Below, piece by piece: positions 6,413 through 33,501 of a stretch of 35,507 bases of DNA. Location of the stretch: the NCBI GenBank assembly GCA_967798035.1, contig CBRGOK010000001.1, forward strand, positions 1 through 35,507, in the 5' to 3' direction. The stretch comes from an uncultured bacterium (lineage in GTDB: Bacteria > Planctomycetota > UBA1135 > JAKEFM01). Position 1 is the first letter of the stretch; every line of letters starts with the position of its first letter. Position numbers and translations under genes: made by a program. A model generated the notes under the pieces. It was not told the origin of the DNA. It was given only the letters and a program-made list of their open reading frames with translations, and searched no databases.

Positions 6413-6439
6413 CGGAGTCGGGCGCGGGCCGGTCGTCGA

Positions 6440-6445: not shown

Positions 6446-6457
6446 AAGCGCCTCCCC

Positions 6458-15585: not shown

Positions 15586-15618
15586 CGCCGCCGCGCCGCG
15601 CCCATCGCCCGGGCGGGC

Positions 15619-16797: not shown

Positions 16798-16907
16798 GGG
16801 GGCCTCCGCGGGGATTGGGCTTCCTTGGACGAGCTTCGAGACACGGCGACGATCGGAGCGGGTTCCCGCGCCGCAGAGTCTCCGGGAGGCTGGAACGGAT
16901 CAAGCCT

Positions 16908-16922
16908 CCGCGCGAAGCGCGG
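16908..16922 (-). terminator. Short GC hairpin immediately after the LMF stop
   Basis: ccgcgc-gaa-gcgcgg (6-bp stem, 3-nt loop) abuts the TGA at 16924-16926. A second, partly overlapping stem exists (ggaggc 16885-16890 with gcctcc 16904-16909). No U-tract. Confidence 0.3.
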
Positions 16923-16923
16923 G

Positions 16924-18417: not shown

Positions 18418-20840
18418 GCCTTTCGCCGGCCCGTGGCGCCGGGGAGCGAAGCGAAGCGGAACGGCTCGGGGAGCGGCGCGAGCGACTGGAGGCCCGCGAG
18501 CAGGCGAGGAGCGACTTCGGGGCGCCGATCGAGCGCGCCTTCGAGGTCGCCATGGAGGGGCAGGGCACGCCGTAGCTCGGCGAGGAGCCGCGTCCTCTCT
18601 CCGGGAGGAACGGCCTCGAGCGTCCGCGCGACGATCCGCGCCGCCAGCCCGGCGAAGGCCTCCGCCGCCCCGAGCGTCGGGGCGAGGAGGCCGCGGTGGA
18701 GGGAGAGGAGCGCCGTCGCCTTCGGGGTGCTCACCCCGAGCCGGGCGCGGACGACCGCGAGGTTCACGACGGGGGGGAGGCCTCGCCCCGCGCGGAGGTC
18801 CTCTCTCGTCTCCTCCGCCGTGGAGAGGACGAGGCGGACGGCCTCCTCGTAGGGGAGGTCCGCGAGGGAGGCCGTGATCCGGGCGGACCGATCGACGAGC
18901 TTGCCGTTCGTCGGCAGGACGTAGGTCATCCAGTTCCCCCGCACCCGGCCGAGGGAGACCATCACGACGGTCGAGAGGGAGTTGAGCAGGAGCTTGAGGA
19001 CGAGGGATCGGGGAAGGTCGAGCGGGCTCCGGGGGACGCCCTCGACGAGGACCGCCTCGTCGTGGGGGAGGAGCTCGGCTCGCGCGAGCCCTCGGGAGGA
19101 GACCGCGATCCAGGCTCGCGCGGCTCCCTCGGCCCCCGCGCGCGCGAACGCACGCCCGACTAGGGAGCCCGGCCGTCGCGCCGCCTCGAGGTCCTCCTCC
19201 ATCCCCACCGCGACGAGGAGGTTTCCGCGCCCGAGGGGCCTCTCCTCGAGCGCGCCCTCTCCGCCGATGCGGAACCGGAGGACGGCCTCGCGGCCGATCG
19301 CGGGCGCCGCGCCGCCGAAGCGGGCGAACCCCTCCTCCCCGAGGAGCCGGCGGTAGGTCGGGACCTGCCACTCGAGGGCGCGGATCTCGCGCCCGAGGAG
19401 CCGGCGCCAGGCCTCCTCGTTCGTGGCGGCCTCGAGGATCAGCGAGGCCGGAGGCGCCTTCGCCTCGGGACGGTCGACGGGCCGGAAGGGAGGGAGCGCG
19501 AAGGTCGGGGAGCGCTCGGTCGTGTCGGTGAGGAGGACGAGCGCCGACTCCTCCCCCGCGAGGTAGAGGGTGAAGCCGCGGCCGGGGTCGAGATCCCTCG
19601 GCGCGTCGAGATTCCCTCCCTCCCGATAAGTCCGCGCCTCGAGGCGGGCGAGCCGGGCGAGCGCCGGGATCGCCGCGGCGGCCCACTCGGGGATCCGCGC
19701 CGAGGCGCGGGCCGCGCTCCGGATGTCGTCCGGGGGGGAAGGAAAGCCGAGCGCGGCGAGGTCGGCCGGCCCGAGCCTCCTCGAGAGGACTCGGCCGAGG
19801 GCCGCCTCGAGGACGCATCCGAGGACGAGCGTGTCGATGCTCGCCGCCTGCATCCGCGTCGAGCCGGTCAGCGCCTGCGGCCCGGTCGCGAGGCCGATCT
19901 TCCGGATCCTCGCCTCCGCGAGCACCCGAGCGCTGCGCTCGACGCCGCGGAGCACCTCGTCGGGGTTGTTGTAGACGAAGAAGGCGCGCGCGCCGCGCTC
20001 GAGCGCCCCCCAGGCCGTGCCGATGACGTGCGTCGTCTCCCCCCCCTCGGTCACGGCGAAGAGGACGTCGCCGGGCCCGACGCCGAGCTCCCGCACCTGC
20101 TCGCGCCCGAAGGACTCCTCGTCCTCGAAGTGCTCGACGGACCGGATGAGCGCATAGTCCCCGCCGGCCATCGCGCCGAAGACGCGCTCCGCCGGGTCCG
20201 AGGAGAAGACCGCGCGCGCGCGTGCGGCGAGCTCGGGGTTCTCCCGGCCGGCGCGCCGCCAGAACCCGCGCCAAGCCGATTCGAGGAGCAGGCTCAGCCT
20301 CCCGGTCGCGCCGCATCCGGTGAAGAAGATCCGGCCTCCCGCGGCCAGGGCCTCCGCCGCGGCGTCGACGGCGGGGTCGAGGACCCCCGACTCGGCCGCG
20401 CGCGCGAAGGCGGCCGGGATCTCCCTGTCGACGGCGTTCAGGAGGGCCAGCCCCTCCTCGACGTCCCGGTCCACGACGCGGCTCAGGTCCGACGTCTTCG
20501 GATGGGGCTGTTCGGTGAGCAGGTGGCCGAGGCGGAAGCGCGACCCTTGGCGCAGGAACGCCTCCGCTTCGGCGCTCCGCGGAGGTCCGTCCTCGAAGCC
20601 TTCGGCCAGGTTCGCGAGTTCGAGGGCCCAGAACTCGAGGTCCGCGCGGATCCGTTCGGCGGCTCCCCGGTGCCTCTCGACGAGGGCGAACAGATCCTTC
20701 GGCGATCCCGTCGAGTAGACGGGATGCTGCGGCTCGGTCGAGACGGATCGAAGCGAGGCGAGAGCCGCCCGAAACGCCGCCGGACCGGGGTCGGGCTCGA
20801 ACAGCGCCCGCAGGGTGCGCGGGACGGTGCGGGCTGTCAC
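18414..20840 (-). CDS. GKRP/MurQ-like double-SIS-domain protein (808 aa)
   Basis: GTG start at 20840. MurQ/GKRP-type motifs: LLTEQPHPKTSDLS, IFFTGCGATGRLS, VTEGGETTHVIG, then VRGNWMTYVLPTNGKLVDRSARI near the C-terminal third. A roughly 300-aa insert lies between the two halves, and extra N- and C-terminal regions are present. Confidence 0.8.
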   Translation of the reverse strand: MTARTVPRTLRALFEPDPGPAAFRAALASLRSVSTEPQHPVYSTGSPKDLFALVERHRGAAERIRADLEFWALELANLAEGFEDGPPRSAEAEAFLRQGSRFRLGHLLTEQPHPKTSDLSRVVDRDVEEGLALLNAVDREIPAAFARAAESGVLDPAVDAAAEALAAGGRIFFTGCGATGRLSLLLESAWRGFWRRAGRENPELAARARAVFSSDPAERVFGAMAGGDYALIRSVEHFEDEESFGREQVRELGVGPGDVLFAVTEGGETTHVIGTAWGALERGARAFFVYNNPDEVLRGVERSARVLAEARIRKIGLATGPQALTGSTRMQAASIDTLVLGCVLEAALGRVLSRRLGPADLAALGFPSPPDDIRSAARASARIPEWAAAAIPALARLARLEARTYREGGNLDAPRDLDPGRGFTLYLAGEESALVLLTDTTERSPTFALPPFRPVDRPEAKAPPASLILEAATNEEAWRRLLGREIRALEWQVPTYRRLLGEEGFARFGGAAPAIGREAVLRFRIGGEGALEERPLGRGNLLVAVGMEEDLEAARRPGSLVGRAFARAGAEGAARAWIAVSSRGLARAELLPHDEAVLVEGVPRSPLDLPRSLVLKLLLNSLSTVVMVSLGRVRGNWMTYVLPTNGKLVDRSARITASLADLPYEEAVRLVLSTAEETREDLRAGRGLPPVVNLAVVRARLGVSTPKATALLSLHRGLLAPTLGAAEAFAGLAARIVARTLEAVPPGERTRLLAELRRALPLHGDLEGALDRRPEVAPRLLAGLQSLAPLPEPFRFASLPGATGRRKA

Positions 20841-20895: not shown

Positions 20896-21567
20896 TCAAC
20901 CGGAGGCGCTTCCCAGGACGTCGTAGCGCGCGCGCTCGTGCGCCTCGACCGGGTCGATCCCCTTCGCGATCCAGGCCTTCACCTTCTTCTCCGCGGCCGC
21001 GCACTCCTGCACGATCCGGAGGACCTCCTCGGCGCGGTCCCAGGGAACGAGGACGACCCCGTTGACGTCCGCGACCACGAGGTCCCCAGGCCGGACGAGG
21101 ACGCCGCCGAGCCCGACCTCGACGCCGCGGCCGCCGAAGGCGCAGCGGCCGCGGACCGACTGCTGGATCACCCCCCGACCGAACGCCGGGAAACGCAGCG
21201 TCTTCATCTCGTCGACGTCGCGCGTGACGCCGTCGATCACGACGCCCGACAGTCTCCTGCGCCTCGCGGTGTAGGAGGCGATGCCGCCGAAGGAGTTCAC
21301 GTCGAGGTGTCCCCCGTGGTCGATCACGAGGACCTCGCCGGGGCCCGCGGCGGCGATCGTCTCGAGCGTCCCGCGGACGGGCGAGGCGGGCCCCTCCGGC
21401 ACGAGGCGCATCGTCGCGGCGCGGCCGGCGATCCTCGGGCAGCCGCTCCAGATCGGGAGGATCCCTCTCGGGGCGCCCTTCAGGTTCAGCCGGTCGAGCG
21501 CATCGGAGACCGTGCAGGTCGAGTGCGCGAGGAATCGCCGCACCAGGTTGGCGGGGTTGGGGGGCAT
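20896..21567 (-). CDS. RraA-family protein (RNase E regulator / HMG-CHA aldolase-like fold)
   Basis: ATG at 21567 (MPPNPANLVRRFLAHSTCTVSDALD), followed by VLVIDHGG, NSFGGI, GVVIDGVTRD, PAFGRGV and GDLVVADVNGVVLVP. Confidence 0.85.
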   Translation of the reverse strand: MPPNPANLVRRFLAHSTCTVSDALDRLNLKGAPRGILPIWSGCPRIAGRAATMRLVPEGPASPVRGTLETIAAAGPGEVLVIDHGGHLDVNSFGGIASYTARRRRLSGVVIDGVTRDVDEMKTLRFPAFGRGVIQQSVRGRCAFGGRGVEVGLGGVLVRPGDLVVADVNGVVLVPWDRAEEVLRIVQECAAAEKKVKAWIAKGIDPVEAHERARYDVLGSASG

Positions 21568-21699
21568 GACGCGACCCGTCGCGATGGCGAACCTACGGCG
21601 GCGGGCGGCGCGGTTCGAGGCCGCTCTCGTTCCGCGGCGGGAGCCGCCGGGGCTATCCTCCGGCCGGGCTCCCGGAAGAGGGCCAAGGAGAGCGCCGCC

Positions 21700-24321
21700 G
21701 TGAGAAACGCATCGCGTGCCGTCCTCGTCGTCCTCCTCGCCGCCTGCGCGGGACCGGGGGGAAGGAGGGCCGAGGCGTGGCGAGACCCGTCGAGGCCGCC
21801 CGAGAAGCGCGCCGCGGACCTCCTCTCCCGGATGACGCTCGAGGAGAAGGCGGCACAGCTGCGCTGCAGCCTCTCCGACCCGGAGGAGAAGCCCGTGATC
21901 CCGGCGGAAGGGATCGGGAACCTCGGGACCTTCCTCCGTCCGTTCCCCGCCGCCGAGGCGGCGGAGAAGGCGAACCGCGTGCAGCGGATCGCGCGCGAGA
22001 AGACCCGGCTCGGCATCCCGATCCTGGTCCACGACGAGGCGCTCCACGGCCTCGTCGGGAAGGGGGCCGCCTCCTTTCCCCAGGCGATCGCGCTCGCGGC
22101 GACCTTCCACACGGACCTGATGCTCGAGGTCGCGACGGCGATCGGGAGGGAGACGCGCAGCCGCGGCATCCACCAGGCGCTCTCGCCCGTCGTCAACCTC
22201 GCGCGCGACGTCCGCTGGGGCCGGGTGGAGGAGACCTACGGGGAGGACCCCCACCTCTCGGCCCGCATGGGGGTCGCCTTCTGCCGCGGGCTCGAGGGGG
22301 CGGGAGTCATCACGACGCCCAAGCACTTCGCCGTGAACGTCGGGGACGGCGGGCGGGACAGCCAGGCGATCGACCTCCCGGAGCGGATGCTGCGCGAGAC
22401 GGAGTTCGTCCCCTTCGAGGCGTGCTTCCGCGAGGCGGGGGCGGGATCCGTGATGGCGGCCTACAACTCGCTCAACGGCCTCCCCTGCTCCTCGAACCCC
22501 TGGCTCCTCACGGACATCCTGCGGAAGGAGTGGGGCTTCCGGGGCTTCGTGGTCTCCGACTACGACTCGGTCGGCGGGATCGTGAGCCTCCACCGAGCCG
22601 CGGCCTCGAAGAAGGAGGGCGCGGCGCGCGCGCTCGGGGCCGGCCTCGACGTCGAGCTTCCCAAGGTCGAGCTCTACGGCCCTCCCCTGCTCGAGGCCCT
22701 GCGGGAGGGGCTCGTCCCTCGCGAGGCGCTCGATCGCGCCGCCACGCGGGTCCTCGAGGCGAAGTTCCGGCTCGGCCTCTTCGAGGACGCGAGCGTGGAT
22801 CCGGGGCGGGCCGCGGCCCTCGCCGACTGCGCGGAGCACCGCGCGCTCGCCCGGCGCGCGGCGCGCGAGGCGATCGTCCTCCTCCGCAACGAGGGGGATC
22901 TCCTCCCGCTGCGCAAGGATCTCGGGGCGATCGCCGTGATCGGGCCTCTCGCGGACGAGGTCCGCCTCGGCGGGTACAGCGGCTCGGGGATGAAGACCGT
23001 GAGCGCGCTCGAGGGAATCCGGGCGAAGGTCTCGCCCGGGACGAAGGTCCTCCACGCCCGGGGCTGCGAGATGGCCTCCGCCCTTCCGGCGATCCCTCCC
23101 GATTTCCTCCGTCCCGAGGGGGGGGACCCGCAGGCCCGGGGCATGCGGGGCGAGTACTTCGGCAACCGCGACCTCGAGGGGAACGCGGCCCTCGTGCGCA
23201 CGGACGAGCGCGTCGACTTCGACTGGAGCGGGGGTTCGCCGGGCGAGGGGGTCAAGGCGGACGACTTCTCGGTCCGCTGGACGGGGAGGATCGTCCCTCC
23301 CGAGACCCGGGCGTACGAGATCTCCGTCACGACCGACGACGGCGTCCGGCTCTGGATCGACGGCCGCCTCCTCGTCGACTCCTGGACCGACCGCTCCCCG
23401 ACGACCGACCGGGTCTCCGTCCGCTGGACGGCCGGGGAGCCCCACGACCTGCGGCTCGAGTACTACGAGCGGGGAGGCGGGGCCGTGGCGCGGCTCGGCT
23501 GGGACTGGAGGTCGGGCGCGCTCCTCGAGGAGGCGGTCGAGGCCGCGAAGGCTTCCGACGCCGCGGTCGTCCTGGCCGGGATCGAGGAGGGGGAGGGGCG
23601 CGACCGCGCGAGCCTCGACCTCTCCCCGGCGCAGGAGGAGCTGATCCTCTCGGTCGCGTCCGTCGGGAAGCCCCTCGTCGTCGTCCTCGTCGGCGGAAGC
23701 GCGGTCACGATGGCGCGCTGGATCGGGCAGGCCCCGGCGATCCTCGAGGCCTGGTACGGAGGCGAGGAGGGGGGGAGCGCGCTCGCCGAGGTCCTGTTCG
23801 GCGACGTCAGTCCCGCCGGCCGCCTCCCGATCACCTTCCCGCGGTCCGTCGGGCAGCTCCCCCTCGTCTACAACCACCGCCCGACCGGCCGCGGCTACGA
23901 CTACGTCGACCTGTCGGGGCGCCCCCTCTTCGCGTTCGGGCACGGGCTCTCCTACACGAGGTTCGAGTACTCGAACCTGCGGATCGAGCCGGCCGAGATC
24001 CCCCCGGCGGGGCGGGTCGAGGTCCGCGCCGACGTGAAGAACGTCGGATCCCGCCCGGGGGACGAGGTCGTCCAGCTCTACCTGCGCGACGAGGTCGGCA
24101 GCGTCGTGCGCCCGGTGAAGGAGCTCCGCGGGTTCCGGCGGATCGCGCTCGCTCCCGGAGAGACGCGCACCGTCGCCTTCGGGCTCGGACCGCGGGACCT
24201 CGCCTTCCCGGGGCCGGACGGGAGGCCGATCGTCGAGCCCGGGTCCTTCCGGGCGATGGTCGGAGCGTCCTCCTCCGACGTCCGGCTCGAGGGCGAGTTC
24301 CGGGTGACCGCGGCCCGCTGA
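21700..24321 (+). CDS. GH3 beta-glucosidase with PA14 insertion and Fn3-like C-terminal domain; lipoprotein/secreted
   Basis: AAGGAG lies 9 nt upstream of the GTG at 21700. Signal: RNASRAVLVVLLAAC. GH3 motifs: LVHDEALHG, KHFAVN, nucleophile region GFRGFVVSDYDSV. PA14: GMRGEYFGNRDLEG...FSVRWTGRI...DDGVRLWIDGRLL. C-terminus: GHGLSYTRFEY, VVQLYLRD. Confidence 0.95.
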   Translation: MRNASRAVLVVLLAACAGPGGRRAEAWRDPSRPPEKRAADLLSRMTLEEKAAQLRCSLSDPEEKPVIPAEGIGNLGTFLRPFPAAEAAEKANRVQRIAREKTRLGIPILVHDEALHGLVGKGAASFPQAIALAATFHTDLMLEVATAIGRETRSRGIHQALSPVVNLARDVRWGRVEETYGEDPHLSARMGVAFCRGLEGAGVITTPKHFAVNVGDGGRDSQAIDLPERMLRETEFVPFEACFREAGAGSVMAAYNSLNGLPCSSNPWLLTDILRKEWGFRGFVVSDYDSVGGIVSLHRAAASKKEGAARALGAGLDVELPKVELYGPPLLEALREGLVPREALDRAATRVLEAKFRLGLFEDASVDPGRAAALADCAEHRALARRAAREAIVLLRNEGDLLPLRKDLGAIAVIGPLADEVRLGGYSGSGMKTVSALEGIRAKVSPGTKVLHARGCEMASALPAIPPDFLRPEGGDPQARGMRGEYFGNRDLEGNAALVRTDERVDFDWSGGSPGEGVKADDFSVRWTGRIVPPETRAYEISVTTDDGVRLWIDGRLLVDSWTDRSPTTDRVSVRWTAGEPHDLRLEYYERGGGAVARLGWDWRSGALLEEAVEAAKASDAAVVLAGIEEGEGRDRASLDLSPAQEELILSVASVGKPLVVVLVGGSAVTMARWIGQAPAILEAWYGGEEGGSALAEVLFGDVSPAGRLPITFPRSVGQLPLVYNHRPTGRGYDYVDLSGRPLFAFGHGLSYTRFEYSNLRIEPAEIPPAGRVEVRADVKNVGSRPGDEVVQLYLRDEVGSVVRPVKELRGFRRIALAPGETRTVAFGLGPRDLAFPGPDGRPIVEPGSFRAMVGASSSDVRLEGEFRVTAAR

Positions 24322-24360
24322 AGTCCCCCCCCGCGCGTTTCCGCGGCGAGGGACCTCGAT

Positions 24361-24366
24361 TAGCAT
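24361..24366 (+). promoter_or_regulatory. -10-like hexamer TAGCAT
   Basis: It lies 44 nt upstream of the GTG at 24411 and 7 nt upstream of the 20-bp palindrome. No -35 is seen. Confidence 0.25.
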
Positions 24367-24373
24367 TCGGGCA

Positions 24374-24393
24374 GGCGACCCACGTGGGTCGCC
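24374..24393. promoter_or_regulatory. Perfect 20-bp palindrome GGCGACCCAC/GTGGGTCGCC (operator or RNA hairpin)
   Basis: Exact reverse-complement symmetry centred on CACGTG. It is located in the 89-bp GH3/amidase spacer, 17 nt before the GTG at 24411 and 8 nt before AGGAG (24402-24406). Confidence 0.5.
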
Positions 24394-24410
24394 GCATCGA
24401 CAGGAGCCCC

Positions 24411-26987
24411 GTGAAGAAGATCCCGGTCGTGGCGCTGTTCGTCTCTCTCGCCTCCGCGGCCGGCCAGACGCCTCCTGTCCCCGGGACCCTCTCGGGGAAG
24501 CGGATCGTCATCTCCCCCGGCCACGGCCGGTACTGGCATTCGAGCCTCGGATGGATCTACCAGCGCCCGCTGATCAACGGGCTCGTCGAGGACGTCCACA
24601 CGAACGAGATCGCGATCGACCATCTCTACCGCTACCTCGAGGGGGCGGGGGCGAAGGTGATCACCTGCCGCGAGCGGGGCACCGTCCCCTTCGAGGCGAT
24701 CCGGGACAACGACCTCCCGGCGACGTACGCCGAGACCGGGACCTGGACGACGAGCGGGACCCCGGGCTACGCCGGGCTCACCTACCGCTTCGTCAACGCG
24801 AGCCCGACGGAGACCGCCACGGCGACCTGGGGCGCCGTCGTCCCGGCGGACGGGCTCTACCCGGTCTACGTCTTCTACCGCGACGGGGCGAACCGGGTGA
24901 CGGACGCGCTCTACCGGGTCCTTCACCCGGGCGGGTTGAGCGAGGTCCGGCTGGACCAGGAGATCGACGGGCTGCGCTGGAACTACCTCGGTTCCTGGAC
25001 CTGGTTCGCCGGCGACCTCGCGCAGGTGACCCTCTCGAACGAATCGGCCGAGGCGGGCGTCGTGATCGCCGACGCCGTCCGGATCGGGGCGGGGATGGGC
25101 TCGATCGTGCGCGGCGGGACGACAAGCGGGGACCCGCGCTGGAGGGAGTGCTCGCGCTACTTCGCCGAGTACTCCGGGGCCCCCGCGAGCGTGTGGGATC
25201 CCTGCGGACCCTCGAGCCAGGACAACTGCGACGACGTGACGGCGCGGCCGAACTTCGCCGAGTGGTGGGGGGCGGACGCCTTCGTCTCCCTGCACACGAA
25301 CGCCAGCCCGACCGGGACGGGGAGCGGGACGAGCACCTACATCTACAACGGCGCCGCCGGCGGGAGCGCGACGCCCGGCAGCGCGGCGCTCCAGGCCTCG
25401 ATCCACAACCGGATCGTCCAGGACCTCCAGGCGGAGTGGGACCCGACCTGGACGAACGGGGGGCTCCTCCAGGCGAACTTCGGCGAGGTGCGCGAGCTCG
25501 TGACGATGCCGGGCTGCCTGATCGAGCTCGCGTTCCACGACAACGTCGCCCTCGACAACCCCTACCTCCACGAGCCCGAGTTCCGGGAGATCTCCGGGCG
25601 GGCGATCTACCGGGGGATCGCGAGCTACTTCCTCCCGGGCGCGCCGTTCGTGCCGGAGCCGCCCGTCGAGGTGGCGATCCAGAATCAGGCCGACGGTGCG
25701 ATGAAGGTCCGCTGGTCGCCCGTCGCCGGGGCGACCGGCTACGTCGTCTACCGCTCGCCGGACGGCAAGGCGTTCGACGACGGGACGGTCGTGGCGGGGG
25801 GGGGGACGGGCGAGATCCCCCTGACGGGCGTCGCCCTCGGGGAGGTCGTGCACGCCAGGGTCGCCTCCTTCAACGCGGGGGGGGTCGGCCGCCCGACCGA
25901 GGTCGTCGCCGCCCGCGCCGCGAAGGGGGGGCCGGTCTCCGTCCTCCTCGTCTCGGGGTTCGACCGGCTCGACCCCTTCGTCCTCGAGCGGGACAACACC
26001 TTCGACTTCGAGCGCCAGCACGCCGCGGCGGTCGCCGCGGCGCTGGACGCGGGGTGGAACTTCGACGGCGCGAACAACGAGGCGGTGCCGGGCCTCCTCG
26101 CGCTCGCCCCCTACCGGATGGTCGACTGGATCCTCGGGGAGGAGTCGACCGTGGACGAGACCTTCTCCTCGGCCGAGCAGGCCCTCGTGGCCGCCTATCT
26201 CGCCGCCGGCGGCAATCTCTTCGCGACCGGCGCCGAGATCGGGTGGGACCTCGACTTCCTCGGGTCGGTCGCCGACCGGACCTTCTACGAGTCGACCCTC
26301 GGGCTGAACTACGTCGCCGACGACGCGAACACCCACTCGATCGCGCAGCCGCCGGCGGCCTCGTTCTTCGCCGGGATCCCGGGATTCACCTTCGACGACG
26401 GGACGCAGGGGACCTACGACGCGAACTTCCCCGACGTCCTCCTCCCCTCCTCCCTCCAGGGGGCGATCGTCCTCACCTACGCCAACGGGGGCGGGGCCGC
26501 GGTCCGCTTCGTGGCGCCGGGCTACCACGCGATCGGATTCGGATTCCCCTTCGAGACGATCGTCGAGGGCGGGCCGCGCAACGCCGTCATGGGGCGGGTC
26601 CTCGACGACCTCGCCCCGCTCCCGATCCCGCCCCAGGACCCGATCGCGCCGGGCGCCTCGCGCGCGATCCCGGTCAACCTCCCGGGCTCGGGGGGGCTCC
26701 CCTTCGCCGTGACCGGTTCGCTCGGGAGCTTCCCCGGCATCCCGATCGACGCGGGGCGGATCGTCCCCCTCAATCCCGATCCGCTCTTCTTCCTCCTCCT
26801 CGCGCCCGGGAACGGGGTCCTCTCCGGGAACGTCGGCACGCTCGACCCCGCGGGGCAGGCGACGATGACCCTCTCCATCCCGGCGATCCCGGGGATCTCG
26901 GGGCTCGCCCTCTACCTCGCCGGCGCCTCCTTCAACGGCGGCGCGCTGAACGAGCTGACAAACTGGGTCCGGGTCGCGATCCTCTGA
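24411..26987 (+). CDS. Secreted multidomain N-acetylmuramoyl-L-alanine amidase-like protein (split Amidase_3 + Fn3 + flavodoxin/GATase1-like domain + shared C-terminal module)
   Basis: GTG at 24411, with AGGAG upstream. Signal: KKIPVVALFVSLASAAG. Amidase_3 zinc/catalytic motifs: VISPGHG (H38), HTNE (E66), FVSLHTNA (H295), LIELAFHDN (E372). A roughly 150-aa insert lies between E66 and H295. Fn3-like: MKVRWSPVAGATGYVVYRS. Then VSVLLVSGFD...YRMVDWILGEES...YLAAGGNLFATGAE. Confidence 0.8.
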   Translation: MKKIPVVALFVSLASAAGQTPPVPGTLSGKRIVISPGHGRYWHSSLGWIYQRPLINGLVEDVHTNEIAIDHLYRYLEGAGAKVITCRERGTVPFEAIRDNDLPATYAETGTWTTSGTPGYAGLTYRFVNASPTETATATWGAVVPADGLYPVYVFYRDGANRVTDALYRVLHPGGLSEVRLDQEIDGLRWNYLGSWTWFAGDLAQVTLSNESAEAGVVIADAVRIGAGMGSIVRGGTTSGDPRWRECSRYFAEYSGAPASVWDPCGPSSQDNCDDVTARPNFAEWWGADAFVSLHTNASPTGTGSGTSTYIYNGAAGGSATPGSAALQASIHNRIVQDLQAEWDPTWTNGGLLQANFGEVRELVTMPGCLIELAFHDNVALDNPYLHEPEFREISGRAIYRGIASYFLPGAPFVPEPPVEVAIQNQADGAMKVRWSPVAGATGYVVYRSPDGKAFDDGTVVAGGGTGEIPLTGVALGEVVHARVASFNAGGVGRPTEVVAARAAKGGPVSVLLVSGFDRLDPFVLERDNTFDFERQHAAAVAAALDAGWNFDGANNEAVPGLLALAPYRMVDWILGEESTVDETFSSAEQALVAAYLAAGGNLFATGAEIGWDLDFLGSVADRTFYESTLGLNYVADDANTHSIAQPPAASFFAGIPGFTFDDGTQGTYDANFPDVLLPSSLQGAIVLTYANGGGAAVRFVAPGYHAIGFGFPFETIVEGGPRNAVMGRVLDDLAPLPIPPQDPIAPGASRAIPVNLPGSGGLPFAVTGSLGSFPGIPIDAGRIVPLNPDPLFFLLLAPGNGVLSGNVGTLDPAGQATMTLSIPAIPGISGLALYLAGASFNGGALNELTNWVRVAIL
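25796..25805 (+). repeat. G10 homopolymer inside the amidase-like CDS (codons GCG GGG GGG GGG)
   Basis: Counted directly: gtggcggggg|gggggacggg. It is the longest mononucleotide run I found in the window. Confidence 0.9.
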
Positions 26988-26995
26988 GCCGCCCC

Positions 26996-27739
26996 GTGAC
27001 CCGCCGCGCCGTCCTCCTCGATTTCGGCAACACCCTCGTCGGGGAGGTCTCCTCCTTCGAGGTCTACGACCCCGCCGCCGCCCCCGTGCTCGAGGCCCAC
27101 CTGTCGAGGCGGCTCGCCGACCGCGACGCGGCGAAGGTCGTCGCGCGGTTCCTGCGCCTGCGGCGCGAGGGGATCGGGCGCGCCCGGCGCACCTACGTCG
27201 AGGAGCCGGCCGCGGGCCACCTCAAGACGGCGTTCGAGACCGGAGGGCTCCACGCCCCGGCGCCGGAGGAGATCGAGGCGGCGCTCGACGTCTTCTGCGC
27301 GAAGGAGGAGGCCGCCTACCGGCCGGTCCCCGGCGCGCTCGAGGCGCTCGCGGCGCTGCGGGAGGCGGGGGTCCGCCTCGGGCTCGTCTCGAACAACACC
27401 TACCACGCGCCGATCGCCCGGACCCTCGAGCGGCTCGGGATGCGGCCGCACTTCGACGTGCTCGTCAGTTCGAGCGCCTTCGGGTTCCGCAAGCCCGACC
27501 CGCGGATCTTCCGCGCGGCGAGCGACTACCTCGGCGTCGACCCGCGGGACTGCGTCCACGTCGGGGACCTCCCGCTCGTCGACGTCGCCGGGGCTCGGGC
27601 GGCGGGGATGAAGAGCGTCCTCGCCCGCGTGGTCCCCTCCCTCGCCGGTGAGTCGCCTCCCGAGGGCCCGGAGCCCGACGCCGTCGTCGAGGACCTTCGC
27701 CGCCTCCCGGAGGCGGCGCTCGCCCTCCTCGCCCGTTGA
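26996..27739 (+). CDS. HAD-superfamily hydrolase (motif I = LLDFGNTL), paralogous in type to 227-964
   Basis: The GTG at 26996 lies 8 nt after the amidase stop. Motifs: LLDFGNTL, LVSNN, KPDPRIF, HVGDLPLVDVAGARAAG. Confidence 0.85.
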   Translation: MTRRAVLLDFGNTLVGEVSSFEVYDPAAAPVLEAHLSRRLADRDAAKVVARFLRLRREGIGRARRTYVEEPAAGHLKTAFETGGLHAPAPEEIEAALDVFCAKEEAAYRPVPGALEALAALREAGVRLGLVSNNTYHAPIARTLERLGMRPHFDVLVSSSAFGFRKPDPRIFRAASDYLGVDPRDCVHVGDLPLVDVAGARAAGMKSVLARVVPSLAGESPPEGPEPDAVVEDLRRLPEAALALLAR

Positions 27740-27789
27740 AGGGGACCGGGGAGGGCGTGGGAGAATCCCGGCGGACCCGGAGGGAATCC

Positions 27790-28329
27790 ATGACGGCGGA
27801 CCCGAGGACCGGGGAGATCCCCACGGCGGCGCGGCTGTGGCGGGAGCTCCCGAAGGAGGAGCGCGAGGCGCTCGCGCGGGCGTTCTTCGAGCAGAAGGAC
27901 CTCGCACCCGAGGCGGCGGGGGCCCTCGCGCGGGAGATCGGCCCGCGCCGCGGCTTCCGTGAGGCGGGCTTCCTGCGGCTTTCGCTCGACCTGCGCGTGA
28001 GGATGCTCGCCTCGACCCTCGACCTCCGGGAGGACGTCGCGGCGACCCTCCTCCTCGTCTTCCACATGGAGAGGCGCCGCCCGCTCCTCCGTCGGTTCCT
28101 CGACCTCGTCGGGATCCCGCACGAGGACGGGATGCTCGGGGAGGAGGAGAACCCCGTCGTCCCCTCGGTCGAGGTCGTCGCGAAGGCGACGGAGGCCCTC
28201 CTCGCCGAGTTCCCGGCGGCCGACGTGCGCCTCTACTACCGGGCCCTCCTCACGCAGGAGCCCTCCCGCTGGCGGGCGGTCGGGAGCGCGCTCTCCTCCC
28301 CCCCCCTCTCCCTCCCCCCCTCTCCGTAA
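27790..28329 (+). CDS. Hypothetical cytoplasmic helical protein (179 aa), no domain recognised
   Basis: GGAGGG lies 5 nt upstream of the ATG at 27790 (MTADPRTGEIPTAARLWRELPKEEREALARAFFEQ...). An alternative TTG at 27736 overlaps the HAD stop (TTGA). High GC3 and a non-junk composition support coding. Confidence 0.6.
   Translation: MTADPRTGEIPTAARLWRELPKEEREALARAFFEQKDLAPEAAGALAREIGPRRGFREAGFLRLSLDLRVRMLASTLDLREDVAATLLLVFHMERRRPLLRRFLDLVGIPHEDGMLGEEENPVVPSVEVVAKATEALLAEFPAADVRLYYRALLTQEPSRWRAVGSALSSPPLSLPPSP
28291..28325 (+). repeat. 35-nt pure pyrimidine (C/T) tract containing C9 and C7 runs, at the 3' end of the hypothetical CDS
   Basis: ctctcctccccccccctctccctccccccctctcc encodes LSSPPLSLPPSP. 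The complementary strand is all purine with G7/G3/G9 runs. Confidence 0.9.
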
Positions 28330-28470
28330 CCCGCGGGAAGGACCCCCCCTCCGGGGCTTCGGTCGGGGCGCCCTGGAGGCCGAAACAGGGAAGCCCCCGC
28401 TCGCTCGCATGGGAGCTCCCCTCGTCGTCGGCCCGGAGAACGCCCTCTCCATCCACCGGAGAGGCGCCCG

Positions 28471-30216
28471 ATGACGCTCTCGAAGCGGGAGCGCCTCGTC
28501 CTCGCGAGCTCCACCTTCTTCATCGGGGCCGTCGCGTTCGTCCTGACGCTGGTCGCGCGCAGGACGCCCGAGCTCGCCCGGCATCTGCCGCGGCGGGAAA
28601 TCACCGTCGTTCCCGGAGGGGAATGGCCCGTCGACACGCAGCCCGCGAGCCGTCCGGTCGAGGGAGGGGAGGGAAACCTCGAGCCCCCGGCCGAGCCTCC
28701 TCTCGAGGGGGACGGAGGTCGACCGGAGCCCGGGGAGCCGGCCGTCGCGAAGCCGAGCGGACCGGTGGGAACCCTCTCCGGCCGGATCACCGACGAGCGG
28801 GGGACGCCGCTGCGCTTCGCGTCGGTCACGCTCGCGATCGAGCGCCGCGAGGTCGACGACGAGGGGGAGGAGACGAAGGTCTCCTTCGAGAAGGTCGCGG
28901 ACTGCCGGGCGAACGCGAGCGGCGTCTATCGACTGGAGACGCGGATGGGAGGGGAGCTCACGGTCCGGGCGCTCGTCGCCGGCTACGAGGACGGGACCCT
29001 GCGGCGGAACTTCCCCGATCCCCCCTTCCAGACGCGCGTCGACCTCGCCCTGCGGACGCGCAAGGTCTCGCGCGTCCGGGGCAGGCTCCTCGACCTGGAG
29101 GGGGCGCCCCTTCGTCCGGTGAACCTCCTCTTCCTCTTCCCGGAGGCCGTCCGCGGCGCGGGCTCCCACCGCGTCCGCGATTTCTGGGGCGCCTCCGGGA
29201 TCTACGCGGCCGCCGAGGCGTTCTGCCCGGGCGCCTGGCGCGGGAGCGTCGAGGGGGAGCAGGCCGACATCGACCTCGAGACGGCCTTCTTCGAGGCGGA
29301 GGTGCCCGCGGGGTCCGAGCGGATCGTCACGGTGGTCTTCCGGGACCAGGCGATCGCGGAGAAGCGCTGGAAGAACGGCGATCCTCCCCTCGAGTTCCGG
29401 ATCGACGTCCCCGGGCTCAACCGCACGCTCGGGGCCCTCGAGCTCGACGTCCTCGACGCCGGGACGCTCCAGCCGGTGGCGGGCGCGGAGGTCTCGTTGC
29501 GGAAGCTGGTCGGCGACTTCGGGATGCGCGCCCTCCACACCGGGTCCTCCCAGCCCTCGCTCCTGGCGCGGGGCCTCCCGCCGGGCCCCTACGCCGCCGA
29601 GGTGCTCGCCCCGGACTACGCGGCGGCGGCCGCCCGGGTCGAGGTCCCCCCCTTCGGGAACGTGCGGGCGGTCGTCGAGCTCGCGCGGCGCGCGACGGTG
29701 CGGCTCAATCTCGTGCCGGTCGACGGCTGGCTGCCGGAGCGCGAGAGCTTCGAATTCGAGTACCGCAACGTGGCGGGCCTGCGCCTCCCCTGCCCCGGCG
29801 AGCTCGACGAGAAGGGGGAGAGCGTGCGGCTCGGCGCCGCCCCGCCGGGGTCGGGCTTCCTCGTCCTGGCGGGGAACGCGCTTCGCCTCGAGCTCGCGAG
29901 CGGCGAGAACTCCGACAGGGGCTTCCCCCTCCGCCGCCCCCGCCGCCTCAAGGTCCGGTTCCGGCCGCGGCCGGAAATCCTCGGGCCGCAGCGCTCCGTC
30001 GTGTGCGAGGCGCGCCTGCTCGGGCCGGGAGGGATCCCCGTCGTCGAGACGGTCTACCGCGCCGCGCGGCGGGCCGACGGCCGCTGCCTCGTGTCGCTCG
30101 ACGCGCCGCCCGGGATCTACACCCTCGAGCTCAGCGCCTGCCGAGGCAAGCTCGTCCGCGGCATGGTCCAGATCGGCGAGGAGCCCGTCTCCGAGACCCT
30201 CGTCGACTCGCCGTAG
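28471..30216 (+). CDS. Single-pass membrane-anchored protein with repeated carboxypeptidase-regulatory-like (CarboxypepD_reg/Ig-like) domains
   Basis: GGAGAGG lies upstream of the ATG at 28471. TM anchor: LVLASSTFFIGAVAFVLTLVA. Repeated modules of the type GTLSGRITDERGTPLRFASVTL...GVYRLE, RVRGRLLDLEGAPL, LDVLDAGTLQPVAGAEVSL...PPGPYAAEVLAPDY, PPGIYTLELSA. Confidence 0.65.
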   Translation: MTLSKRERLVLASSTFFIGAVAFVLTLVARRTPELARHLPRREITVVPGGEWPVDTQPASRPVEGGEGNLEPPAEPPLEGDGGRPEPGEPAVAKPSGPVGTLSGRITDERGTPLRFASVTLAIERREVDDEGEETKVSFEKVADCRANASGVYRLETRMGGELTVRALVAGYEDGTLRRNFPDPPFQTRVDLALRTRKVSRVRGRLLDLEGAPLRPVNLLFLFPEAVRGAGSHRVRDFWGASGIYAAAEAFCPGAWRGSVEGEQADIDLETAFFEAEVPAGSERIVTVVFRDQAIAEKRWKNGDPPLEFRIDVPGLNRTLGALELDVLDAGTLQPVAGAEVSLRKLVGDFGMRALHTGSSQPSLLARGLPPGPYAAEVLAPDYAAAAARVEVPPFGNVRAVVELARRATVRLNLVPVDGWLPERESFEFEYRNVAGLRLPCPGELDEKGESVRLGAAPPGSGFLVLAGNALRLELASGENSDRGFPLRRPRRLKVRFRPRPEILGPQRSVVCEARLLGPGGIPVVETVYRAARRADGRCLVSLDAPPGIYTLELSACRGKLVRGMVQIGEEPVSETLVDSP

Positions 30217-30235
30217 CCCTCCGCCTCGCGCCGCG

Positions 30236-30241
30236 CATAAT
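30236..30241 (+). promoter_or_regulatory. -10-like hexamer CATAAT
   Basis: An AT island 32 nt upstream of the ATG at 30274. No clear -35. Confidence 0.25.
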
Positions 30242-30273
30242 CCCAAGTTCCCCGGACGACCGGGAGAACCGCC

Positions 30274-32019
30274 ATGAGGCTGCGCGCGCTTCGTCCCGCC
30301 CTTCTCGCCTCCGCCCTCCTTTCCGCCTCCTCCCCCGCCCAGACCCTCGTCTGGTCGCAGGACGGCGAGGCGCAGGACGACCGGTTCGGGATCTCCGTCT
30401 CGGGAGGGGCGGATCTCGACGGGGACGGCTTCGACGACGCCGTCGTCGGATCCTGGCGCCACGACGGCCCCGCGGGGATCGACGCGGGGAAGGCGTACGT
30501 CTACTCCCCGCAGAGCCTCGCGCAGCTCTGGATCTTCGACGGGGAGGCGGCGGCCGACGAATGCGGGTACGCGGTGGCCGTCGCCGGGGACGTGAACGGC
30601 GACGGGACCGCCGACGTGATCGTCGGCGCGCCGCTCCACAACGCGGCGAGCGGCGTCGACGCCGGCAAGGCCTACGTCCTCTCGGGCCCGGACGGGACCC
30701 TCCTCCTCAGCGTCACGGGGGAGGCGGTCGGGGACCGGTTCGGATTCTCGGTATCGGGCGCGGGGGACGTGAACGGGGACGGGAGGGCCGACGTGATCGT
30801 CGGGGCCGACCGGTGGAACGCCCCGGGCGCGCTCGACGCCGGCAAGGCCTACGTCTACGCGCTCCCCGCCGCCGCCACCGCGCCCCTCCTCCTCTATTCC
30901 TGGACCGGGCTCGCGCAGCAGGACAACTTCGGGGCGGCGGTGGCAGGCGCGGGAGACGCGAACGGCGACGGCCGCTCCGACCTCGTCGTGGGGGCGTGGC
31001 GGTTCGACCCCCCGAGCGGAACGAACGCCGGCCGCGTGGCCGTCTTCTCGGGACTCACCGGCGCCCCCCTCTTCACGTTCGACGGGGAGTCCCCCGCCGC
31101 GGCCTTCGGCGCGGCGGTGGCGGGGCCCGGGGACACGGACGGCGACGGGCGGGCCGACATCCTCGTCGGGGCGTGGGGGCAGGCGAGCGGCGGCGGGACG
31201 TTCGCCGGGCGCGTCTACCTCTACTCCGGCCTGACCGGCGCCCTCCTCACGACCGCGGACGGACTCGCTCCGGGCGACGCCCTCGGCACCTCCGTCTCGG
31301 CGGCCGGCGACGTCGACGGCGACGGATTCGCCGACTACGCCGCGGGCGCCCCCTCCCAGAACGGGCAGACTGGCCGCATCTACGTGTTCCGCGGCGGCCC
31401 GGCCCCCATCCCCCCCCCGCCCCTCCTCTTCGAGCAGGGGGGCGAGGCCCTCGCCGACTTCTTCGGAACCGGGCTCGGCCCCGGCGGGGACATGGACGGG
31501 GACGGCTTCGGGGAGGTCTCCGTCGGCGCGCACTTCCACGACGTCGGCACCGGGGACGTCGGGAAGGCCTACGCCTATTCGGGCGTCCCGCCCGGCATCG
31601 ACTCGTTCGGCTCGGGATGCCCCGGGTCCCTCGGCGCCGCGCCGCGGATCGGCGTCACGGGGATCCCCTTCGTCGGGGCGACCTTCGAGGTCCATCTCTC
31701 GAGGACCCTGCCCGGCACCTTCGCCCTCCTCCTCCTCGGGGCGTCGAACGCGTCCCTCCCGGGGGGCCTCCCCCTCCCCCTCAACCTCGGCTTCCTCGGG
31801 ATGCCCGCCTGCAACCTCCTCGTCTCCCTCGACGCGATGCTCCCGGCGGCGACGAGCGGACCGGGGCCGGGCGCCGGCCGCGTCTCGTTCCCCTTCGCCA
31901 TCCCGCCCGATCCCCTCCTCGTGGGCGGGGTCGCCTACGTCCAGTGGTACATCGTCGATCCGGGTCCGGCCCCTCTCCCGGGGGCGATGACGCGCGCGCT
32001 CGCCGTGACGCTGCAATAG
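30274..32019 (+). CDS. Secreted integrin-alpha-like 7-bladed FG-GAP beta-propeller + shared C-terminal module
   Basis: Signal: MRLRALRPALLASALLSASSPAQ. Seven FG-GAP blades, each with a Ca-loop: DLDGDGFDD, DVNGDGTAD, DVNGDGRAD, DANGDGRSD, DTDGDGRAD, DVDGDGFAD, DMDGDGFGE. Recurrent GKAYVY/GRVYLY strands. A C-terminal domain of about 140 aa follows. Confidence 0.9.
   Translation: MRLRALRPALLASALLSASSPAQTLVWSQDGEAQDDRFGISVSGGADLDGDGFDDAVVGSWRHDGPAGIDAGKAYVYSPQSLAQLWIFDGEAAADECGYAVAVAGDVNGDGTADVIVGAPLHNAASGVDAGKAYVLSGPDGTLLLSVTGEAVGDRFGFSVSGAGDVNGDGRADVIVGADRWNAPGALDAGKAYVYALPAAATAPLLLYSWTGLAQQDNFGAAVAGAGDANGDGRSDLVVGAWRFDPPSGTNAGRVAVFSGLTGAPLFTFDGESPAAAFGAAVAGPGDTDGDGRADILVGAWGQASGGGTFAGRVYLYSGLTGALLTTADGLAPGDALGTSVSAAGDVDGDGFADYAAGAPSQNGQTGRIYVFRGGPAPIPPPPLLFEQGGEALADFFGTGLGPGGDMDGDGFGEVSVGAHFHDVGTGDVGKAYAYSGVPPGIDSFGSGCPGSLGAAPRIGVTGIPFVGATFEVHLSRTLPGTFALLLLGASNASLPGGLPLPLNLGFLGMPACNLLVSLDAMLPAATSGPGPGAGRVSFPFAIPPDPLLVGGVAYVQWYIVDPGPAPLPGAMTRALAVTLQ
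30583..30678 (+). repeat. Intragenic direct repeat copy A (FG-GAP blade 2)
   Basis: Aligns at a 177-nt offset with 30760-30855. The first roughly 45 nt match about 88%, and a 23-nt identical block (tcgacgccggcaaggcctacgtc) follows. Confidence 0.7.
30760..30855 (+). repeat. Intragenic direct repeat copy B (FG-GAP blade 3)
   Basis: See copy A. The period is 177 nt, or 59 codons. Confidence 0.7.
31420..31428 (+). repeat. C9 homopolymer inside the FG-GAP CDS (ATC CCC CCC CCG)
   Basis: Counted directly. It encodes IPPP in the linker between blades 6 and 7. Confidence 0.9.
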
Positions 32020-32045
32020 GACGCGGCGGATTCACGGCGGCTCGC

Positions 32046-32051
32046 TAGAAT
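32046..32051 (+). promoter_or_regulatory. -10-like hexamer TAGAAT
   Basis: An AT island 61 nt upstream of the ATG at 32113. A strong GGAGG sits at 32103-32107. Confidence 0.3.
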
Positions 32052-32112
32052 CGGCTCCCGTGATGCGGGCCCCTCCCCGGGCCCGACCGAAGGCCCGAAT
32101 CCGGAGGTTTCC

Positions 32113-33501
32113 ATGCGCCTCGCCTCTCTCCTCGGCTCCGCCCTCGTCCTCTGCGGAGCCGTCTCCCGCGCGTCGGCGGTCGACATCTGGGTCGACGCCG
32201 CGACCGGCAACGACGCCAATCCCGGGACCCTCGCCCTCCCTCTCCTGTCGATCACGGCGGCGGCGACCATCGCCGCCCCGGGAGACCGGATCCTCGTGCG
32301 GCCCGGGACCTACGACCCGGGGACGACGGGGGAGATCTTCCCGATCAACATCGGGCTCCCTGGAGGGGTCGCGGTCCCGCAGCAGAGCGTCCAGATCCTC
32401 GGCGTCGGGGGCGCCGCCGCGACGATCGTCGACGGCGCCGGGGCGAGCACGTCGGTCGCGGGGATGATCTCCTTCCGCGCGCTCGGGAGCGGGGGCCGGC
32501 TCTCCGGGTTCACGCTCCGCAACCACAACGGCGGGTTCGGCGTCGTCCGGATCGGGAGCATCACCGCCGGGTCGAGCTTCCAGACGACGAACATCGAGAT
32601 CGACCACTGCGTCGTCGAGACGGGCGCGGGATTCTCCGCCTACGGGATCGCGACCTTCGGGCCGGCGGGCGGGCTCCGGATCCACGACAACCTGATCCAG
32701 GGCGCGACCGACGCGAACCTCTGGATCTCGGACATCACGACGGGGAGCCCCGGGGGCGGCGACGTCTACAACAACACGATCGTCGACGGCCTGAACGGGA
32801 TCCGGGTCCAGGGGGGGAACTGGAACGTCTTCAACAACATCGTCGCGAACCACTCGAACTTCGGGATCTTCGATTTCGGGATCGCGCCCCCGGCGCTCCT
32901 GAACCTCCTCAACGACTCCAACTGCGTCTTCGGGAACGCGACCGACTACTCCGCGATCGCCCCGGGGCCGAACGATGTCTCCGTCGACCCGCTGTTCGTG
33001 AACCCGGTCCCCCCGGGCGACCACCATCTCCTGGCGACCTCCCCTCTCGTCGACGCGGGGACCTCGATCGTGCCCCCCTTCCTCGACTCGGACGGCGACG
33101 GCGACCCCCGGTTCATCGATTCGGACAACGACGCCTTCGCGGTCCCGGAGATCGGCTACGACGAGGTGACCGACGTCCGGCTCCTCCTCAACGGGACCTT
33201 CGGGCAAGGGCAGACCTTCTCCCTCGACGTGGCGGCGCCCGCGGGCCGGTTCGTCGCCTACTTCTTCTCGCTGGGCCCCCTCAACTTCGTCCTCCAGCCC
33301 TTCGGGAACGTGCTGATCGACCCGACGATCCTGATCCAGTTCTTCCCCTCCGGGATCACGCCGGCGGCGGCGACCCCTCCCATCCCGATCCCGGTCCTCC
33401 CGGTCCTCGACGGCGCGTTCGTCCACATGCAGGCGGCGGTCTTCGACGTCGCGAGCCCCCCCCTCGCCAAGGTGACGAACAAGATCGTCGGGGCGCTGTA
33501 G
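32113..33501 (+). CDS. Secreted right-handed parallel beta-helix (pectate-lyase-fold/DUF1565-like) protein + shared C-terminal module
   Basis: Signal: MRLASLLGSALVLCGAVSRASA. N-terminus: IWVDAATGNDANPGTLALPLLSI...APGDRILVRPGTY. Repeated rungs: HCVVE, IHDNLI, VYNNTIV, VFNNIVAN. D-rich loop DSDGDGDPRFIDSDND, then a roughly 108-aa tail. Confidence 0.8.
   Translation: MRLASLLGSALVLCGAVSRASAVDIWVDAATGNDANPGTLALPLLSITAAATIAAPGDRILVRPGTYDPGTTGEIFPINIGLPGGVAVPQQSVQILGVGGAAATIVDGAGASTSVAGMISFRALGSGGRLSGFTLRNHNGGFGVVRIGSITAGSSFQTTNIEIDHCVVETGAGFSAYGIATFGPAGGLRIHDNLIQGATDANLWISDITTGSPGGGDVYNNTIVDGLNGIRVQGGNWNVFNNIVANHSNFGIFDFGIAPPALLNLLNDSNCVFGNATDYSAIAPGPNDVSVDPLFVNPVPPGDHHLLATSPLVDAGTSIVPPFLDSDGDGDPRFIDSDNDAFAVPEIGYDEVTDVRLLLNGTFGQGQTFSLDVAAPAGRFVAYFFSLGPLNFVLQPFGNVLIDPTILIQFFPSGITPAAATPPIPIPVLPVLDGAFVHMQAAVFDVASPPLAKVTNKIVGAL

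Follow-up and report, generated by a model that had tools for sequence, protein, structure and literature searches.

A large family of C-terminal tail domains on secreted proteins of uncultured Planctomycetota and its members in a six-gene locus

Why should secreted proteins with unrelated bodies carry similar C-termini? This question is raised by six co-directional genes, here called A to F, within a stretch of 35,507 nucleotides (nt) from an uncultured planctomycete (contig CBRGOK010000001.1; the whole stretch is referred to as the window). An earlier note on this DNA, made by reading the sequence, had described the six genes as an exported-protein island and had proposed that three of the products (A, E, and F) end in one and the same module of about 110 amino acids (aa), termed the tail in the following. 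The tail of E was found to belong to a very large, previously undescribed family of C-terminal domains for which neither Pfam nor NCBIfam has a model. As regards one module on three proteins, E and F stood firm in profile and hhalign comparisons, whereas membership of A is only probable. The genes and tails are located as follows:

Gene A, 24411-26987, + strand: 858 aa, amidase-like protein
Gene B, 26996-27739, + strand: 247 aa, HAD-family hydrolase
Gene C, 27790-28329, + strand: small protein
Gene D, 28471-30216, + strand: 581 aa, protein with CarboxypepD_reg domains
Gene E, 30274-32019, + strand: 581 aa, FG-GAP propeller protein
Gene F, 32113-33501, + strand: 462 aa, right-handed beta-helix protein
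Tail of A, 26643-26984, + strand: aa 745-858, "A-type" tail, no cysteines, probable member
Tail of E, 31582-32016, + strand: aa 437-581, about 145 aa, canonical domain, predicted beta-sandwich
Tail of F, 33181-33498, + strand: aa 357-462, very probably a divergent, shortened member

Relationship of the tails of proteins A, E and F

The earlier note had regarded A, E, and F as signal-peptide proteins with unrelated bodies, and the Pfam matches to the three bodies bear this out. Protein A starts with a signal-peptide-like N-terminus (VKKIPVVALFVSLASAAG, read from the sequence) and contains a Golvesin_C domain (aa 97-225), an Amidase_3 domain (aa 275-404) and a conserved C-terminal body domain ending in GFPFETI...VLDDL, after which the tail begins. 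Protein E possesses a signal peptide (aa 1-22) and an FG-GAP propeller of seven blades (aa about 23-436; seven FG-GAP stretches were matched by Pfam), followed by the canonical tail. In protein F, a signal peptide (aa 1-22) precedes a DUF1565 right-handed beta-helix and the tail; this body was matched by NCBIfam as LIC10774-like and, weakly, as choice-of-anchor Q, and NCBIfam added nothing else for the six proteins. Protein D has an N-terminal hydrophobic membrane anchor and CarboxypepD_reg domains (Pfam) and no tail. The HAD-family hydrolase B (Pfam) has no signal peptide and, as far as can be seen, stands outside the tail system. Protein C, for which an alternative TTG start exists at 27736, likewise lacks a signal peptide and has no family match in Pfam or NCBIfam. 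Since B and C have neither a signal peptide nor a membrane anchor, the label of an exported-protein island is only partly apt and applies to four of the six genes (A, D, E, and F).

Pairwise BLASTP among the three tails gave nothing significant (best pair E-F with E = 2.4, pairs with A worse), so that their alignment by eye alone is not above chance. Relatedness was judged with profiles built from relatives of the E tail, A and F being excluded. A word-indexed protein search with the E tail yielded four matches, all partial proteins of Planctomycetota metagenome-assembled genomes (MAGs); the F and A tails as queries yielded none. The first profile consisted of the E tail and these four matches. 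A hidden Markov model (HMM) built from the best 150 matches was run, with filters off, against all 291 six-frame open reading frames (ORFs) of the window. E headed the ranking (1.8e-56), followed by the F tail (6e-5) and the A tail (0.066), with no other ORF below 0.6, and in both F and A the match sits at the C-terminal place expected. The final profile of 127 positions, obtained by iterating over 57 related loci, matched the F tail over positions 15-119 (E 3-5e-6) and the A tail over positions 82-116 only (E 1.6e-3 at Z = 2557). The matched part of A, aa 811-845 (nt 26841-26945), is the last beta-hairpin.

The E tail is a canonical member of the family and carries the cysteines C449 and C513, the LPLPL motif, the IPxxPxLxG motif and the near-invariant Q. 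The F tail is without either cysteine and retains IPxxPxLxG as well as the P, Q and D. Comparison of the F tail with the family by hhalign resulted in a probability of 86% (P 5.6e-6, 87 columns), all 25 of the 25 best phmmer matches to this single sequence were family tails (best 5.7e-6), and none of 2000 shuffles reached the observed score. With these results there is little doubt that the F tail is a divergent, cysteine-less family member.

For the A tail, which keeps the P and lacks the Cys pair and the near-invariant Q, the evidence is divided, and we consider it probable that this tail represents a still more divergent subtype. Two observations weigh against its membership: the match spans only about 30-35 residues, and the hhalign probability, 30% for A alone and 62% (P 7e-5) when A was paired with a relative from locus L019, fell to 11% when a third putative A-type sequence (from locus L012) was added. 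Together with the insignificant pairwise BLASTP and the missing residues, they leave a minor but real chance that the likeness of A to E and F is convergent or fortuitous, a Pro/Gly-rich beta-hairpin in a high-GC proteome, and that A ends in a different, unrelated small domain. Such a coincidence is at odds with the place of the match, which is exactly C-terminal and in register (the IPxxPxxxG hairpin, then the final T/S-N strand), and with its rank behind E and F among the window ORFs. Again none of 2000 shuffles attained the score of the A tail, and its weak phmmer matches were strongly enriched for family tails in the correct register. An iterative search seeded with the A tail did not converge onto the canonical family and found one clear relative, the L019 sequence (E 3.6e-5), which is C-terminal on an arylsulfotransferase protein and whose gene lies directly upstream of a canonical-tail gene.

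Two loci contain such A-type cysteine-less tails beside canonical ones. The spans recorded in L019 are 15266-17029 and 16429-19722, and in L012 (6200-14142) the tail is borne by a beta-helix protein encoded downstream of two canonical-tail genes.

Size, predicted fold and cargo of the tail family

An exhaustive HMMER profile search against 1.84 billion cluster representatives (50% identity clusters) found 9,590 representatives at E <= 1e-3, 3,646 at E <= 1e-10 and 56 at E <= 1e-30, with the match at the C-terminal end of almost every protein listed. The consensus reads G.GC.GsgG.vP.ig..G.P..G..F.v.Ls.Alpg..A.L.lG.Snt.W.G.PLPLdL..lGaPGC.LLVSpDvl....T.g.G.As.plpIPndPaLvG..ly.QW.V.DPgan.lgga.SnGl. 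Its two cysteines are conserved in 83% and 97% of the members, the Q in 99% and the P in 98%. The motifs singled out in the earlier note, IP-x-x-P-x-L-x-G, a hydrophobic strand and a final S/T-N/R...V-x-L strand, proved to be the most conserved C-terminal elements of the family. The length of about 110 aa has to be corrected: canonical tails comprise about 130-145 aa, and only those of F and A are short (about 105-115 aa). Exactly one copy per protein was present in 259 of 259 locally collected proteins. Of 250 complete domains, 243 reach to within 11 residues of the last amino acid when measured with the final profile, which does not extend over the last strand; measured with the first profile, almost all leave just 1-7 residues ahead of the stop codon. 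As to whether all carriers are signal-peptide proteins, a check proposed in the earlier note, this holds for A, E, and F, and a hydrophobic N-terminus was found in 84 of 107 full-length relatives.

The tails of A, E, and F had no match in Pfam or NCBIfam (E <= 1), no Pfam model covered the tail in 29 family members even at E <= 10, and no model of either database lay over the tail in 32 diverse full-length members. In agreement with the earlier note, which could assign no named signal, models for type IX secretion system (T9SS) domains of types A, B and C, CTERM signals, LPXTG, dockerins and carbohydrate-binding modules (CBMs) gave no match. A cluster look-up returned only the name "hypothetical protein", and the searched literature contained no description of such a domain.

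A subgroup of members of about 310 aa (P0080, P0098, P0130, P0131, P0135, P0146, and P0147) has the motif F/Y-G-x-G-C-x-G, which also opens the C-terminal tail, directly after the signal peptide. A DUF4082 match was obtained for 7 of the 32 diverse members, among which this subgroup is counted. More than one beta-sandwich domain may make use of the motif as a reusable N-terminal element of a strand and a cysteine.

The E tail was modeled with AlphaFold2. From an alignment of 29 sequences an eight-strand beta-sandwich was predicted with high confidence scores (predicted local distance difference test, pLDDT, 95.7; predicted template modeling score, pTM, 0.89); a prediction from a 5-sequence alignment (pLDDT 52) was unusable. 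The best Foldseek matches of the model in the Protein Data Bank (PDB) were GM2 activator, MD-2, NPC2, RhoGDI and assorted immunoglobulin (Ig)-like domains, including Ig-like domains of glycoside hydrolases. The lipid-binding ML-domain proteins and RhoGDI reached E 4e-4 to 2e-2, with a Foldseek probability >= 0.9 for most. Because the TM scores of the PDB matches are only 0.30-0.47 and the root-mean-square deviations (RMSD) 6-14 Å (identity 8-16%), these resemblances are generic. Foldseek against BFVD gave nothing below E 7e-3 and only generic beta-sandwich matches (TM < 0.5), and a PDB sequence search with the E-tail profile gave chance antibody light chains only (E > 0.2). Judged from this model, the tail has a generic E-set/Ig-like beta-sandwich fold with no close PDB or viral relative. 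Identities as a T9SS C-terminal domain (CTD), CBM, ML domain or phage fibre were rejected as memberships. The three tails of the window end in a beta-strand (...AVTLQ, ...KIVGAL and ...VRVAIL) and have no terminal hydrophobic helix or basic cluster.

That a common C-terminal module sits on different cargo, as the earlier note had put it for three proteins, applies to the family as a whole. The bodies ahead of the tail comprise FG-GAP and Kelch propellers, M14 carboxypeptidases, S8 subtilases, a reprolysin with a C-type lectin domain, trypsin-like peptidases, multicopper oxidase, arylsulfotransferase, right-handed beta-helices, and DUF4082, DUF642, NIDO and TIG domains. Among the best 150 matches, which are the closest relatives of the E tail, about half have the FG-GAP propeller architecture. 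The NCBIfam choice-of-anchor families C, Q, Z, R and H were found among the cargo of the 32 diverse members. Choice-of-anchor proteins are surface proteins that carry LPXTG, PEP-CTERM or T9SS anchors depending on the lineage (bioRxiv 10.1101/2023.03.06.531300).

The related loci were collected from one genome per GTDB species by means of a narrow peptide pattern derived from the 5-sequence alignment. All 57 loci, with G+C contents from 55% to 73%, came from uncultured Planctomycetota MAGs except the contigs of one "Luminiphilus" MAG. Its three tail-bearing contigs (L029, L031, and L053; labeled Luminiphilus sp., Gammaproteobacteria) are probably mis-binned, since L029 shares several neighbor genes with the Planctomycetota loci L006, L007 and L011. 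Several genomes contain 3-4 separate loci, and in 33 of 55 related loci 2-5 tail genes, frequently tandem paralogues, share a stretch of at most 20 kb. The three tail genes of the window, with unrelated bodies in 9 kb, fit this clustering pattern.

Candidate function of the tail and its gene neighborhood

The C-terminus of A was compared with those of its orthologues. A metagenome scan with the A body found 12 relatives (25-42% identity). The shared body ends at a GFPFETI...VL.F motif, and the part downstream of it varies by lineage. Two low-GC orthologues (L067 and L070, 36-42% identity) carry a T9SS type A sorting domain at the position of the A tail (TIGR04183, 43 and 49 bits, respectively, cut-off 23; PF18962, 37 and 44, cut-off 27). 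The L059 protein (73% GC) ends in a Ser/Thr-rich linker, a GGCS motif, a membrane helix and RRR, which resembles a myxobacterial-type CTERM signal below threshold, and the L064 and L066 proteins terminate in dockerin-like repeats that likewise score below threshold. Protein A of the planctomycete has the tail in this slot. The orthologues with a T9SS domain in this slot favor a sorting or surface-retention module.

Any functional reading starts from established points, namely the family, its predicted fold, its strict C-terminal position, its diverse cargo, its genomic clustering and the membership of E and F. A shared localisation module with a cognate partner, either an export tag or a means of surface retention, is suggested by the strict terminal position, the single copy, the signal peptides and a choice-of-anchor-containing cargo without a conceivable common substrate. 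A shared substrate for such cargo is hard to imagine and a shared destination is not, and we give this reading, partner included, an even chance. Under it, A, E, and F (A as a probable member) would be exported by Sec in this uncultured high-GC planctomycete, each unrelated catalytic or adhesive body being fused to one lineage-specific C-terminal beta-sandwich. After export, a common partner would recognise the tail and would move the cargo across the outer membrane or keep it on the cell surface. Such a partner may be a component of the outer membrane or of the cell surface, or else a surface lipid or glycan. More tentatively, and with a clearly lower probability, the tail could be the recognition domain of an undescribed outer-membrane export or surface-attachment pathway restricted to an uncultured Planctomycetota lineage. 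It would then be an independent counterpart of the T9SS CTD with thousands of cargo proteins, and tails of the F and A types would be variant signals. Of the uncharacterised surface-attachment or export route, or glycan-binding domain, envisaged in the earlier note, the behavior as a terminal module was borne out, although the searches of the window and the related loci revealed no route, processing enzyme or conserved partner gene; this cautious reading is still the best one at hand.

Several points speak against a localisation module. Neither the window nor the 57 related loci (each up to about 20 kb) yielded cognate machinery, a sortase-like enzyme or a recurrent partner gene; the earlier statement that no cognate sortase, exosortase or T9SS gene is visible holds for the 35.5-kb window and an overlapping 14.8-kb contig. 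The tail has no sequence similarity and no special structural similarity to T9SS CTDs, and a T9SS is not known from Planctomycetota. Some binding domains or pro-domains, too, are strictly confined to the C-terminus, and the weak Foldseek likeness to lipid-binding beta-cups and Ig-like domains suits ligand binding equally well. When the neighbor genes of the 57 loci were clustered, recurrent genes (histidine kinase, Ser/Thr kinase, ABC/MlaD, DCC1-like oxidoreductase, TPR and CarboxypepD_reg proteins) were confined to close synteny blocks, and neither a sortase or protease nor a secretin-like protein emerged as a candidate. Since T9SS components, too, are not known to be linked to the genes of their cargo, the lack of neighboring machinery is weak evidence.

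The same data were weighed for two other functions. The tail might be a beta-sandwich for ligand binding or adhesion (to a glycan, a lipid or another polymer) and not a sorting tag, bringing diverse enzymes to a common substrate or to the cell's own envelope without dedicated export machinery. The generic E-set/Ig-like fold, the ML-domain proteins and RhoGDI at the top of the Foldseek list (E 4e-4 to 2e-2), the Ig-like domains of glycoside hydrolases among the matches and the absence of a processing enzyme or secretion gene nearby are consistent with this function. We nevertheless consider it rather unlikely: the structural matches are poor (TM only 0.30-0.47, RMSD 6-14 Å), no CBM or ML-domain model of Pfam matched even at E <= 10, and binding modules are often internal, N-terminal or in tandem, whereas the tail is single and terminal in 259 of 259 proteins. 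Moreover, peptidases, oxidases, a sulfotransferase, a cell-wall amidase and propellers have no substrate in common. Improbable in our judgment is a transient pro-domain, an intramolecular chaperone or secretion aid of the PPC type that would be cleaved after export and have no role in final localisation. A small beta-sandwich that is strictly C-terminal in many secreted hydrolases, M14, S8 and reprolysin peptidases among them, would suit such a role, but the tail is equally common on non-enzymatic FG-GAP and Kelch propellers and beta-helices, has no similarity to PPC or other known pro-domains and is joined to the body without an evident conserved cleavage motif in the alignment.

Little is understood of the way in which Planctomycetota, with their unusual cell envelope, bring a very large secreted proteome to the surface. 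The tail family marks the C-termini of peptidases, oxidases, cell-wall amidases and integrin-like propellers. It thereby defines a candidate "sortome" whose size can be determined for each genome, offers a basis for phylogenetic profiling toward the cognate machinery and improves the annotation of thousands of "hypothetical proteins". If the tail is a true sorting signal, it would represent a new class of folded C-terminal signals outside the Bacteroidota lineage. If it is a binding domain instead, it would still be a large uncharacterised family that deserves a database entry.

Two kinds of neighbor genes were recorded beside tail genes. In four loci a gene for a DCC1-like thiol-disulfide oxidoreductase lies immediately upstream of an M14-peptidase tail gene (L004, 7280-8020; L013, 464-1033; L054, 7161-8021; L058, 69-578). 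These loci may be just close relatives with common synteny, and the gene may be of interest given the Cys pair of the tail. A large protein with nine CarboxypepD_reg repeats is encoded near tail genes in L006 (8590-12354), and its homologues have the same neighborhood in L007, L011 and L029. A link of these proteins to D is unproven because BLAST found no homology between them. BLAST also found no homologues of B, C, D or the F body in any fetched related locus, and these genes are therefore not conserved partners.

Genes in the window, with a G+C content of about 74%, were assigned from third-position GC and reading frame, since such DNA yields abundant long spurious ORFs. ORFs of more than 1,000 aa, for example 20896-24366 (- strand), 27526-32016 (- strand) and 21777-26987 (+ strand), are artefacts of this composition; they run antisense to, or out of frame with, genuine genes and are not for annotation. 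The coordinates of the six co-directional genes and their gaps of 8, 50, 141, 57 and 93 nt agree with the earlier note. A scan of the A-F island for promoters and terminators found none.

The remaining genes of the window are concerned with polysaccharide synthesis or metabolism or encode a sulfatase and a putative GH3 protein, and none is related to secretion. A polysaccharide or glycoconjugate biosynthesis cluster (6452-11431, + strand) comprises a GT1-family glycosyltransferase, a Wzx-like flippase (Polysacc_synt_3), a GT2 glycosyltransferase and a PMT_2-type membrane glycosyltransferase. Upstream of it lie a sulfatase gene (4514-6322, - strand) and a gene for a tail-less ASPIC/UnbV FG-GAP protein (2373-4523, - strand). 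At 16924-18471 (- strand) a lipase maturation factor homologue is encoded (LMF1, E 2.5e-43; LMF1_C, E 2.3e-35), a member of a family best known from eukaryotic endoplasmic reticulum proteins. The product of the gene directly upstream of A (21649-24321, + strand) was judged by eye to be a beta-glucosidase of glycoside hydrolase family 3 (GH3) that starts with a signal or lipoprotein-like sequence and has a PA14-like segment inserted. Past the right end of the window the DNA continues in an identical metagenome contig (L001; ENA ERZ27397409, NODE_3277). This contig encodes two M28 peptidases, a CCP_MauG peroxidase and an 889-aa protein without a Pfam match (recorded spans 5728-7386, 9127-10632 and 7448-8971), and the family HMM found no tail in it at E <= 1e-3.

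Comparison with known C-terminal systems

In other phyla, T9SS CTDs, dockerins and S-layer homology (SLH) domains achieve localisation of this kind via a common partner. By analogy, the tail behaves most like a T9SS CTD or a dockerin/SLH-type anchor and is a member of none of these groups.

The T9SS type A domain (Por_Secre_tail, TIGR04183/PF18962) of Bacteroidota and relatives is likewise a small all-beta sandwich, placed at the very end of proteins exported via Sec, present in one copy per protein, on diverse cargo (peptidases, adhesins, beta-helix proteins) and on many carriers per genome, and it is this domain that A-body orthologues carry where A carries the tail. The tail differs from it in that neither A, E, and F (E <= 1) nor the 29 tails (E <= 10) matched the profiles; L067 and L070 served as positive controls (43-49 bits against a cut-off of 23). 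Moreover, the tail comprises about 140 aa and the T9SS profiles only 72-75 positions, the tail has a conserved cysteine pair, no T9SS CTD structure was among the top Foldseek matches, and no PorU/PorV-like genes were seen in the available DNA (the 35.5 kb and the overlapping 14.8-kb contig). T9SS domains of types B and C (PF13585 CHU_C, TIGR04131, NF033708) gave no profile match.

With the PEP-CTERM/exosortase, MYXO-CTERM and LPXTG/sortase systems the tail has in common that a lineage-specific C-terminal element is attached to unrelated secreted proteins, and choice-of-anchor bodies occur both with those signals and with the tail. Those signals, however, are short (about 25-35 aa) and consist of a motif, a membrane helix and a basic cluster, whereas the tail is predicted to be a folded soluble beta-sandwich. 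Because it has no terminal helix, the tail is not a tripartite signal of this type; an identity with them was also rejected for want of an NCBIfam CTERM match and of a basic cluster.

The ML domain (GM2 activator) and other E-set beta-sandwiches are of similar size, are disulfide-stabilised beta-sandwiches or beta-cups and gave the best Foldseek E-values (4e-4 to 1e-2). TM scores of 0.30-0.42, an RMSD of 6-14 Å, an identity of 10-16% and no Pfam match place this resemblance of the model only at the general level of fold class.

Dockerins and SLH domains differ from the tail in sequence and fold, and no cohesin-like partner was identified; identity with a dockerin or CBM was rejected, as none of the 29 tails matched a Pfam dockerin or CBM profile at E <= 10. 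The likeness of dockerins and SLH domains to the tail lies in the principle that a module added at the C-terminus brings diverse enzymes to a common cell-surface partner, and dockerin-like repeats replace the tail in some A-body orthologues. Taken by analogy with these systems, the tail may be regarded as a kind of folded C-terminal localisation domain on secreted proteins.

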